Shown piece by piece: positions 3,001-6,000 of a stretch of 64,000 nt of DNA (positions are counted from its first letter, which is position 1; each line of letters starts with the position of its first letter). The stretch lies in the IMG/VR virus record IMGVR_UViG_2913112809_000002; one strand, written 5' to 3'. This DNA comes from a virus (lineage: Duplodnaviria > Heunggongvirae > Uroviricota > Caudoviricetes). The position numbers are program-made.

Positions 3001-6000
3001 TGGTTGTTCCGGCAGTTCCTGTAAGAAGCAAATCAACCGTAGAGTTCGTCGCGCCTTTACGTGAAATACCATTTATTTTCACGTTACTGGTCAGTGCAGC
3101 CCCATAGCCGGTTGCCGGTGAAAAACAGTTGTAGACAGTTATCGCCATATTATTGGCATCATGAATCGCCAGCGCCGTCAGAGCCACCATCTGGCCGTCT
3201 TTGCTGTCCGGTTCGAGGTAGGCATCACTGCCATAAATCTGCTGAAAATAGCTAATCAGGGTGCTGAGTATCGTCTGATAATCAGGCGCACTGATCCCCT
3301 CCGCGGTTACCTTTGCAGATAAACCGAGAGAATCAAGGTTCAGAGCCATTACGCCTCCGATGTAACAGTCGTTATTCCATAAAGAGTGTCGATTTCAGCG
3401 GAAAACATGACACGTCGGGTCGTGGTATCCACTGTCGTATTGAAAGAGAGGATTGATTTAACGCCCCGCGTTTCGAGGATGCGCTTACGGATCGCCAGGT
3501 TGTAGGTTTCCGGCTTCTGCTTACCGAGCACGGACTGGATCCACGGAGTCCCTTCGGTGGTGTCGAGAAACCATTGCCCATACCACAATTCGAATCGCGT
3601 TTTCACAGCCTGTGCTACGGCCTCAGGCGAGTTAATCAGCCAGGTGTCATCACCGCTGCCAAAGGTGTAATCGCCATCGGCGTCTTCACGTCTGTATCGC
3701 ATCAGTTTACCCCATCGGTATTGCTTCCACCGCGCTGAACACCGCCATGAGTGTGCGTATCATCGATTGGCTTGCCGTTAGCCTTCACGCTACCCAAAAA
3801 CTCAACAGCACCAGTGATTTTTGAAGCCACACCAGAAACAACAGACCCCACCATGCCCCCCAACCAGGTTAACAGGCCATGAATGGTTACTTTCTCAGAA
3901 AAATCAGCCAGAGGGGCAACCACATCAAGACCACCCGGAGCGACAATTTTAATTTTCCTGGTATCAGGATTAAGCTCAAAATAGGTGCTACCGTCGTCAC
4001 TACGCAACTGTGTGGCACTGGTATTAATACCGCTAATCGTTCTCGCCTGCGACTGGGGACCGACAATACAAAACGCATCCGATAAATCATGCATTCTGTC
4101 ATCGACCGGCTCCTGTATCCCACCGCTCTGCCACCAGAAATCAATACAACGATCGGCAAAAACGACAAGACACTCATCCCCGGCTTTAACCGGAAAAGTC
4201 AACGTACAGCCTCCGCCGCGCGGAAATACCACTGGCACATCCACCAGCAACGGGTAATTTTTGGTAATGCGGTTACCGTCGTTATCCTTTTCAACCGAAC
4301 GGATAGCTGGCTGCACAACCGCCGTCACCGCGTCGGGCTCGAATGACTGAACAATGCCAGGCAAGGCGACACGGATCTGGTTCTTTGTTGTTTCCCGTTC
4401 AGATTTGAATGTTTCGGCAAGGTCGCCGCTGCGGGTCTGGTCAGATACTGCCATTTAGTAGGCTCCAGAAAGCAAAAAACCCGCCGGGTGGCGGGTTCAT
4501 TATTGAAGTTTCATTACTGCTTGTTTGCTTCTAACGCTTCAGCTATTCGGCGAAGATACTCATTGTTTTTAAATGAAACCATGATGCACTCAAAGAATAT
4601 TCGGCAAAATACAGCACATAACAAAAGCACTAAAGCGCCAGCAGCCTTCCCATTAACAAACGTTATAATGGCGGCAACAACCAGAAGTAACATTGTGATG
4701 CCATACAGAACGTTGATGATTTTTGGAGTTATTAATTTATCAAATCCGAACATGCGACAAATTCCTTATCGTGAAAGTAGAAGTATCACATTATAATTAC
4801 GAGTGATTAATCAACAATCTTTTTGCATGGAAAGGAGCCGATGATTTTCGGCGCATCCATGCTGTTCTGCAGCAGTTGCACATTCAGGAATCGCGTTTCG
4901 GTACCAGGGCGACGAATGTATTCAAAGCCGTAGTTGTTACCGTCTTTGGCTGGCATAAGCCCCATGTCTACTTTCAAACCATTGGTACCCAGTTCGGTGA
5001 TTTTTTGAGAGGTAACTCTTTCACCGTTGATTGTCGATAACTCGCCCTGGTTTGCAACCATAGTGTAGCCACCGCATTTAACCGTGAAGCCATCCGCCCA
5101 CGCGCTGCACGCAGAAAAGACAGCTAACAGAAAAATAATCCCCCTCATTGCTCATCCCCTTTGCAAAGCCGATTGCGTATACAGATCCGCCGCGCCACGC
5201 GCTTCGCACATCATATCCATGTACCACGCCTGGCCCCTTGTGTCGCCAGTGTACATAATCCCGCGCACAATATAAACGCCATCCATTGCGATGCTGGCAG
5301 GCTGTGATGTGGTGCCGCTGAGCGTAATATTTCCGTCCGTGTTCTGGTCGGTGATCTGACCACCAGCCATAGCGATATCGTTGTTCGACAACGCGGTGCG
5401 ATATACAGAAGCCTGATCCAGCTGAATGAGCCCATTAACCCGGATGTTCGGATTAATAAGCGCGCGGACGTTTACGCCGTTGCCGATGGTCTGCTGCGGC
5501 ATGCCAATAAGCCCGGTAGCGCTGTTGAGCACAATCGCTTCGTGAACATATTCATTATTCGCCACCATCTGGCGCTGACCGTCCACGAATTGCCATGTTG
5601 CGCCACATTGCCCGGCTACGTTATCCATTAGATGCCGCGTCATGCCAAAGAGCACCCGCCCCCGGGGGAATACAGTAGCAGGCATTTCAGGCGTCAGGCC
5701 TTCGGTCGCACCTTTGGCTTCGAAGTCTTTCATCAGCGCACGGTTCACATCAGCGACCGTGTAACCGGCAGCCAGCGTCTGTGAGGTTATACTGGTGGCA
5801 AAAGCCAGATCAGTATCTGCTGCCTGAATCAGGACGTAGGAATCAACCGGACTGTCTTTTCCTGTGACCGAGTAGCGAATTTCACCGCTGAAAATCAGTC
5901 CGTAGTTGCGGCCATCACTCTGGCCCACGTCCGCCGCATCAACCTCCCGCACGGTCCCGACGTCGCTTGCCGACACCTCCGGCGCGATACCGTCGTAACC

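Follow-up and report, generated by a model that had tools for sequence, protein, structure and literature searches.

The window analysed here, a stretch of 64,000 nt of viral DNA (IMG/VR record IMGVR_UViG_2913112809_000002, Caudoviricetes), carries on its minus strand a contiguous myophage tail and baseplate module, in which two small genes lie between the gene of the baseplate hub (5152-6213) and that of the spike (3702-4454, extending to 4466 with its ribosome-binding site GGAG at 4466-4463). The gene next to the hub (4807-5148), hereafter called sec113, encodes a 113-amino-acid protein with a signal peptide and starts with an ATG 3 nt past the hub stop codon. The second gene (4514-4753) encodes a 79-amino-acid protein of the DUF4282 family with two hydrophobic helices, and a predicted intrinsic terminator (4474-4495) stands before the spike; all these elements are on the minus strand. 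The hub was recognised by its matches to phrog_196 (3e-89) and Pfam E217_GP41 (5e-5) and is homologous to the gp19 hub of phage Pam3, and the spike by a Gp138_N-type domain (7e-44) and a GpV apex motif. Both small genes had been proposed in a first-pass annotation of this DNA and proved to be real: sec113 matches phrog_3443 (~1e-47) and has ~396 homologous clusters, and the 79-amino-acid protein matches phrog_12129 (8e-48) and has ~87. Each has, as that annotation stated, a Shine-Dalgarno sequence of its own, AGGGGA located 8 nt upstream of the sec113 ATG and AAGGA located 9 nt upstream of the DUF4282 ATG.

Comparison of this region among related phages revealed a two-layer accessory site, a description that we hold with high confidence: a fixed sec113 gene adjoins the hub and is followed by an interchangeable cargo slot, the interval from the sec113 stop codon to the conserved terminator. 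The DUF4282 gene is one of many interchangeable cargos, while sec113 is a fixed feature of the lineage. The first-pass annotation had considered both genes inserted, and this description suits the 79-amino-acid gene, a horizontally acquired cargo, but not the lineage-fixed 113-amino-acid gene. The comparison with relatives lacking the insert that it recommended gave empty slots or other cargo in place of the DUF4282 gene; sec113 was lacking only in distant outgroups and had been replaced in Hafnia phage yong1.

The first layer was surveyed in 80 viral contigs with close sec113 homologues and 77 with distant ones, in which hub, spike and neighbouring genes were mapped. In all 157 loci retrieved in this way through sec113 homologues, the gene directly follows the hub, and its start remains a few nt past the hub stop codon even where the hub has diverged to 43-64% identity and sec113 to 26-38%. 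The same arrangement was found in the isolated phages Mulock, SEN34, YP3 and 689R2, and the lineage spans Escherichia, Salmonella, Klebsiella, Yersinia and Citrobacter. Pairwise distances of sec113 track those of the hub (Spearman 0.92, compared with 0.79 for the tape-measure C-terminus), which indicates that both genes have been inherited vertically together. At the same time, sec113 is the fastest-evolving protein of the module, with a mean distance of 0.39; the values lie between 0.14 and 0.30 for Dit, hub, spike, W and J (W 0.14, J 0.21) and reach 0.38 for the tape-measure C-terminus. The distance matrices were also searched for a co-evolving partner among the tape measure, the spike and the other proteins, but this approach was non-discriminating because the best candidate was the adjacent hub (0.92), as linkage alone predicts.

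Why should such a constant gene not be a baseplate gene? The window contains one-to-one counterparts of every part of the Pam3 minimal baseplate: a Dit-like tube initiator (6518-7105), a Pam3_gp18-type plug (6216-6518), the hub, the spike, a W-like wedge protein (3349-3702), Baseplate_J (2150-3349) and DUF2612 (1530-2153), all on the minus strand. The solved Pam3 structure contains no component corresponding to either small protein (PMC9942802), and neither of them both has a counterpart in a solved Pam3/Mu-type baseplate and is retained wherever such a baseplate is found. The first-pass view that neither protein is structural is thus borne out. The hub gene of Pam3 and that of Bordetella phage IFTN9 overlap or abut the spike gene, with no sec113 between them. 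Burkholderia phage BgManors32 also lacks sec113 and carries at the junction a single signal-peptide protein on the opposite strand, which was considered as a sec113 relative and found to be unrelated. In Hafnia phage yong1, whose hub is 77% identical to that of the window, sec113 has been replaced by an unrelated signal-peptide protein (L169 3568-4095). Its annotated coding sequence covers 3622-4032, but the probable start is GTG 3568, which overlaps the hub stop codon and yields the signal peptide VNKRTVFLILSLFVPIAVMA|APG, and a 3′ remnant of sec113 encoding ...MDAPKLIGSFPCKKVPG* persists at ~4033-4095. Because outgroups with the same baseplate do not have the gene and yong1 has replaced it, a structural role of sec113 is disfavoured. 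The first-pass annotation would have given up its interpretation if related phages always carried the two genes as conserved baseplate genes; for sec113, every enterobacterial relative retrieved does have it, but as an accessory gene that the outgroups lack and yong1 has exchanged. Since none of the 157 loci retrieved through its homologues lacks sec113 at this position, it does not behave as a typical moron either, and it is best seen as an ancient addition, fixed in the enterobacterial branch of the lineage, rather than a baseplate part.

The second layer is as variable as the first is constant. The slot measures from 63 bp to ~3 kb, with a GC content of 0.35-0.46 in the close set, and it is empty (63-67 bp) in loci L066 and L075. 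A detailed inspection of the 80 close loci and of four phage records yielded at least 15 unrelated gene sets in the slot. These include pairs of genes for proteins of 243 and 142, 256 and 131, and 207 and 125 amino acids, a 192-amino-acid protein together with a YafO-family toxin (Pfam 4e-17), several membrane proteins and an antirepressor-like protein. Loci L087-L090 (for example L087 2298-3527) carry a 409-amino-acid T5orf172/GIY-YIG protein with an N-terminal transmembrane segment, which matches PD-lambda-1 (SNIPE) in PADLOC at 3.7e-84; SNIPE is a nuclease of the inner membrane that cleaves phage DNA as it is injected (PMC13190303). The exchange of cargo takes place beside an unchanged neighbour, as the same sec113 allele (97-99% identical) adjoins the 243+142 pair, the 256+131 pair, other cargos or an empty slot. 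By analogy with the PD-lambda-1/SNIPE homologue and the YafO toxin pair that occupy this slot in relatives, an anti-phage function of slot cargo is plausible. The hub-spike junction sequence is present in 262 of 5426 complete E. coli genomes (~5%), 40 of which have both small genes together. Our literature search found no prior description of a hotspot at this junction.

In the window the slot is occupied by a low-GC cassette (4499-4806, minus strand) that contains the DUF4282 gene. GC content falls to 0.37-0.39 over ~4500-4900, against 0.52-0.56 in the flanks, a difference in composition that is characteristic of morons. Morons in the Juhala/Hendrix sense are genes of foreign composition, absent at the same position in close relatives and provided with their own promoter and terminator (PMC3594210). 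The DUF4282 gene is present in only 15 of the 80 close loci and is replaced elsewhere by other cargo or by an empty slot, again as a moron would be. A putative sigma-70 promoter for the cassette can be read at 4790-4817 on the minus strand, consisting of TTGTTG (4817-4812), a 16-nt spacer and TATAAT (4795-4790), and overlapping the last codons and the stop of sec113. Its -10 element is perfect, whereas its -35 element matches the consensus at three of six positions, so that the site falls under the threshold of our consensus scanner; we infer that it is a plausible promoter of the DUF4282 gene. An antisense open reading frame of 102 amino acids (4488-4796, plus strand) that overlaps the gene is probably spurious.

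Homologues of the DUF4282 protein with 45-70% identity are also encoded at accessory sites of other phages. Their genes directly follow the tape-measure gene in Klebsiella siphophage prophages and in Edwardsiella myophage GF-2, stand behind the lysis cassette in a prophage of Pantoea, and neighbour insertion sequence (IS) elements. Each copy examined outside the slot has a promoter-like site upstream, including those of the Klebsiella and Pantoea prophages, and a terminator downstream. Such a spread over add-on sites together with flanking signals is the behaviour of a mobile moron in the sense established with HK97 gene 15 (PMC3594210), and the sequence evidence points to the 79-amino-acid gene being a horizontally acquired one of low GC content. 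In GF-2 (L173 4001-6316), the homologue abuts the tape-measure stop codon and is followed by an Arc/Arc-like/Ant (immI-like) block, which precedes the dit, plug and hub genes and constitutes another accessory island in a related tail module.

The membership of the 79-amino-acid protein in DUF4282 is well established: residues 2-71 align with positions 2-85/86 of Pfam PF14110 with 42.2 bits against a cut-off of 27 (E=1.2e-10), and its homologues carry the precomputed PF14110 annotation. Positive charges at both of its ends predict a topology with N- and C-termini inside, which would place the conserved surfaces of this inner-membrane protein in the cytoplasm. Those surfaces are an N-terminal FDKLITPKII motif and the motif R..FFE..FKNNEYLRRI at the end of the second transmembrane helix and in the C-terminal helix, both invariant in 22 homologues; the transmembrane cores and the short loop between them are variable. 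A search of the PDB with the family profile gave nothing meaningful.

The right boundary of the slot is the terminator. Its stem CCCGCC/GGCGGG with the loop ACCC (4495-4480) is followed by six T residues (4479-4474), with a predicted folding energy of -18.6 kcal/mol (z=-3.15). Of 165 related loci, 159, those with empty slots included, have a hairpin of the form CCCGC(C)-loop-(G)GCGGG with a T5-7 run ahead of the spike ribosome-binding site. The loops vary and the stem has undergone four independent compensatory changes (CCCAC/GTGGG, CCCGTC/GACGGG, CCTGC/GCAGG and CCAGC/GCTGG), so that a GC-rich hairpin with a T-run has been kept as a structure in evolution, as is proper of a rho-independent terminator. 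Outgroups without the accessory region are also without the hairpin (L170, L171). The terminator that the first-pass annotation attributed to the two small genes is therefore real as a hairpin, but the relatives with empty slots keep it as well, and we predict that it is a terminator of the phage backbone rather than part of either gene. The distance from the end of the T-run to the spike ATG is 9-19 nt across loci and ~19 nt in the window. This leaves no room for a promoter, which implies that the spike and the downstream baseplate genes are transcribed by read-through. Read-through into the spike would fit a Q antiterminator, and genes of the Q family are present in closely related E. coli prophages.

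The window has hairpins of the same style (CCCGC-N3-7-GCGGG-TTTT) at four more sites, including a bidirectional one (40727-40744 on the plus strand, 43213-43236 on both strands and 53327-53346 on the plus strand), where none is expected by chance; this looks like a common terminator style of these phages. In addition, the hairpin and ribosome-binding site CCCGCTCCGGCGGGTTTTTTATGCCCGGAGG that follow the DUF4282 gene in the Klebsiella siphophage loci L008/L010 (5249-5290) are almost identical to the slot boundary in L084/L087. The sharing of this hairpin by Klebsiella siphophages and myophage slots could reflect an exchange of cassettes, or else convergence or the common terminator style.

The sec113 protein begins with MRGIIFLLAVFSACSAWA|DG, a canonical signal peptide with n, h and c regions and an AxA cleavage site. 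In an alignment of 27 homologues the -1 alanine of AxA is invariant while the h-region varies in sequence, so that n-h-c has been kept as a feature, as expected of a Sec signal peptide. The mature part is 64-95% identical (26 homologues) and has two invariant cysteines, C25 and C108, near its two ends, which probably form a disulfide. The GC content across the gene is 0.48-0.50, near that of the backbone. The AlphaFold2 model obtained with close homologues only (predicted local distance difference test score, pLDDT, 65.5) was not trusted; once divergent homologues were added, pLDDT rose to 86 and the model was an eight-stranded beta-barrel. On the basis of the signal peptide and this model, we predict that sec113 is a Sec-exported, periplasmic beta-barrel protein.

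A profile search of 1.84 billion representative proteins returned only 41 representatives of the family, essentially all of them small signal-peptide proteins in the same frame, together with one 292-amino-acid lipoprotein that has a C-terminal copy of the domain. No match to sec113 was found in Pfam, NCBIfam or PADLOC, and a PDB search with the family profile gave nothing meaningful. Several candidate relationships were discarded. Profile matches to giant PKD/Ig-repeat proteins were judged repeat-driven noise after a Pfam check. The lipobox-like FSAC of the window copy suggested a lipoprotein, a reading that was rejected as the general case because most homologues do not have that cysteine. 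Finally, a 121-amino-acid secreted cargo (L069) was dropped as a sec113 paralogue, since the hhalign result (probability 46%, 31 columns) covered the signal peptide and a CG motif only. In Salmonella phage SEN34 (L003 2881-3222), the homologue is annotated as a 77-amino-acid protein from an internal ATG; a TTG start 3 nt past the hub stop codon gives the full 113-amino-acid protein with its signal peptide.

What might these two proteins do? Our best guess, a tentative one that falls short of even odds, is that either of them, independently, may exclude incoming phages at the level of the envelope. The DUF4282 cassette would be transcribed in the lysogen from its own weak sigma-70-like promoter and end at the backbone terminator, an arrangement by which cargo with its own promoter could be expressed while transcription stops short of the baseplate genes; in lytic growth, polymerase modified by Q would run past the terminator and transcribe the spike gene. 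From its place in the inner membrane, the DUF4282 protein would block the DNA-entry step of incoming phages, in the manner of HK97 gp15, T4 Imm and P22 SieA. These three proteins and, by another route, SNIPE act at the genome-entry step at the inner membrane. As for sec113, it would be translated right after the hub from the late transcript, exported by Sec, cleaved after AWA and folded in the periplasm as a small eight-stranded barrel, where it might bind a tail-tip or envelope component, as T4 Spackle and T5 Llp do in their own ways. Spackle inhibits the tail lysozyme of T4 in the periplasm (PMC7677548), Llp blocks FhuA (PMC9586334), and HK97 gp15 is the product of a tail-operon moron that confers exclusion at the inner membrane (PMC3594210). 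For the explanation as a whole, the two-layer architecture and exclusion taken together, we would give a compromise probability of about 0.5.

Several observations weigh against this explanation. Neither protein matches PADLOC (none at E<=1), NCBIfam, the Pfam exclusion families or a function-annotated PHROG, and our literature search found no mention of DUF4282, PF14110, the PHROG identifiers or the RefSeq accessions. A sequence scan found no recognisable promoter for sec113, and without one the protein may be made only late in lytic growth, which would be a poor fit to an exclusion factor expressed by the prophage; the DUF4282 promoter is itself weak by consensus, with its -35 at three of six. 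Also, the conservation survey was seeded by sec113, so that relatives without it could not be counted, and the checks seeded by the hub were restricted to the records opened from the isolated-phage collection.

The alternatives share part of the same evidence. Both genes might be lysogenic-conversion or host-fitness factors unrelated to exclusion, acting in envelope stress, serum or colicin resistance or the binding of small ligands, for which lambda Bor and Lom are the models. We regard this as possible but doubtful: a host-specific factor would not be expected to remain locked to one position of the tail module across Escherichia, Salmonella, Klebsiella, Yersinia and Citrobacter, DUF4282 genes immediately follow the tape measure in phages of two unrelated types, and the identified neighbours in the slots of relatives are anti-phage or toxin genes. 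The barrel fold might instead suggest that sec113 inhibits a periplasmic peptidoglycan hydrolase (PliC/MliC/PhiA-like) and thus neutralises, as Spackle does, the tail lytic transglycosylase of related phages. However, sec113 matches neither the MliC sequence profile of Pfam nor, closely, an eight-stranded MliC barrel; avidins, Cap15 and designed barrels outscore PliC, which makes the fold non-discriminating, the correlation with the tape-measure C-terminus (0.79) is below that with the hub (0.92), and Pfam does not confirm a hydrolase domain in the tape measure of the window. Such an inhibitor seems distinctly unlikely. The strict position of sec113 in the baseplate operon, its translational coupling to the hub and its co-inheritance with it are what an assembly factor or minor virion component would also display, with the hydrophobic N-terminus as an anchor. 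This role is nevertheless highly improbable in view of the canonical cleavable signal peptide with its invariant AxA and variable h-region, the two invariant cysteines, which suit an oxidising compartment, the completeness of the homologous Pam3 baseplate without sec113, the lack of a gene there in IFTN9 and the unrelated secreted protein that takes its place in yong1.

For the 79-amino-acid protein, the size, the predicted two-helix topology with both ends inside and the charged C-terminus recall pinholins, and in one relative (L007) the gene stands just after the lysis cassette. A membrane-damaging effector, either a class II holin of this kind or an abortive-infection toxin, is still very unlikely, as no holin family matches the protein, a lambda-family holin, a GH24 endolysin and an Rz-like gene are already encoded by the prophage, a holin under a constitutive promoter would kill the cell, and conservation resides in the cytoplasmic motifs and not in the transmembrane helices. 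Finally, the two genes are adjacent, on the same strand, both directed to the envelope and found together in 15 of 80 close relatives, so that they might be thought of as one functional pair, be it a two-component exclusion system or the toxin-immunity pair that the first-pass annotation proposed. The latter proposal fails on the distributions, which are independent and do not show the co-occurrence of a two-gene system: sec113 is accompanied by at least 15 other cargo sets or by none, and four other contexts, among them phages of Klebsiella, Pantoea and Edwardsiella, have DUF4282 genes but no sec113. GC content also differs (~0.49 versus 0.38), and the conserved motifs of the DUF4282 protein would be cytoplasmic whereas sec113 would be periplasmic; a pair of any sort is hardly credible. 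Returning to envelope-level exclusion, an extension that we consider unlikely, yet worth stating, is that sec113 may found a new class of periplasmic phage proteins. It would be a lineage-wide exclusion factor of the late operon, which binds the tail tip of sister phages (tape measure or spike) or covers an envelope component and thereby saves progeny from being lost on debris, and the slot would be a cargo dock that has repeatedly captured injection-stage defences (DUF4282, SNIPE) acting at the same step.

The phage that carries this region is a SEN34-like, lambdoid-regulated temperate myophage. It is closely related to prophages of E. coli and, among isolated phages, to vB_EcoM-689R2, Yersinia YP3, Salmonella SEN34 (Brunovirus) and Klebsiella Mulock. 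E. coli strains E62 and B27 carry the same module in a prophage of lambda-type regulation that is equipped with CI/Cro/CII/N and nin genes, an antiterminator of the Q family, a holin of the lambda family, a GH24 endolysin and Rz-like genes. The module of the window begins with the tape measure (7105-9093, minus strand), in which Pfam detects no hydrolase domain and matches PhageMin_Tail only weakly and which has an NNNPGN-containing region at its C-terminal side; in relatives, this protein is annotated as a lytic transglycosylase by PGAP and the depositors. After DUF2612, the module ends on the same strand with a glycine-rich fibre and its assembly protein. The window seems to hold two adjacent prophages, the myophage on the minus strand (1-~38000) and a siphovirus-type lambdoid phage on the plus strand (~39000-64000) with tape measure, portal, S49 peptidase and terminase genes. 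The complete E. coli genomes of the collection searched match neither half above ~95-98% identity and 75-82% coverage. Two phage-borne tRNA pairs were observed, Thr(tgt)+Asn(gtt) at 22853-23008 (minus strand) and Thr(tgt)+Gly(tcc) at 43475-43628 (plus strand); in B27, the Thr(tgt)+Asn(gtt) pair is located between the Q antiterminator and the holin gene.

Add-on genes of prophages are a main source of phage resistance and of strain differences in E. coli, Salmonella and Klebsiella. The hotspot described here is easily recognised by the succession of hub, conserved secreted gene, slot, terminator hairpin and spike, and could be mined for new defence genes. It also draws attention to two uncharacterised families, a secreted barrel kept by a whole lineage and a membrane protein that recurs after the tape measure in two other phage types. 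If either of them does block genome entry, the few exclusion mechanisms that act at the envelope would gain a new small protein. Both proteins belong to families already defined, Pfam DUF4282, PHROG 12129 and PHROG 3443, all annotated as of unknown function.

How does this region compare with known systems? The DUF4282 gene resembles HK97 gene 15, which also encodes a small inner-membrane protein, lies between conserved tail genes of a lambdoid-regulated temperate phage, is atypical in GC content and has a promoter and terminator logic that permits expression from the repressed prophage (PMC3594210). The corresponding signs here are the dip in GC content, a promoter-like site upstream of the gene, a terminator downstream of it and its absence from close relatives. 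On the other hand, no sequence similarity to gp15 was detected, the slot lies between hub and spike instead of between chaperone and tape measure, the terminator belongs to the backbone and not to the insert, and exclusion by the DUF4282 protein is only putative. The sec113 protein shares with Spackle and Llp the character of a small secreted or periplasm-facing phage protein that acts where the tail tip crosses the envelope (PMC7677548, PMC9586334). It is likewise small, predicted to be Sec-exported and to contain a disulfide, and its gene adjoins those of hub and spike. It differs from Spackle in that its modelled eight-stranded barrel is an unrelated fold and in that Spackle is an early gene, whereas sec113 apparently belongs to the late operon. 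The fold of Spackle is helical. As a whole, the site is comparable to the antiviral hotspots encoded by P2/P4-type phages (Rousset et al. 2022, as cited in PMC10884400) and to the defence arsenals of prophages, with which it has in common conserved core flanks, a hypervariable low-GC interval and defence or toxin cargo such as PD-lambda-1/SNIPE and YafO. It is distinguished from them by its position within the baseplate operon of a SEN34-like myophage and by its boundaries, a fixed secreted-protein gene on one side and a conserved hairpin on the other. The region is thus a moron and defence hotspot of a familiar kind, placed inside a baseplate operon.

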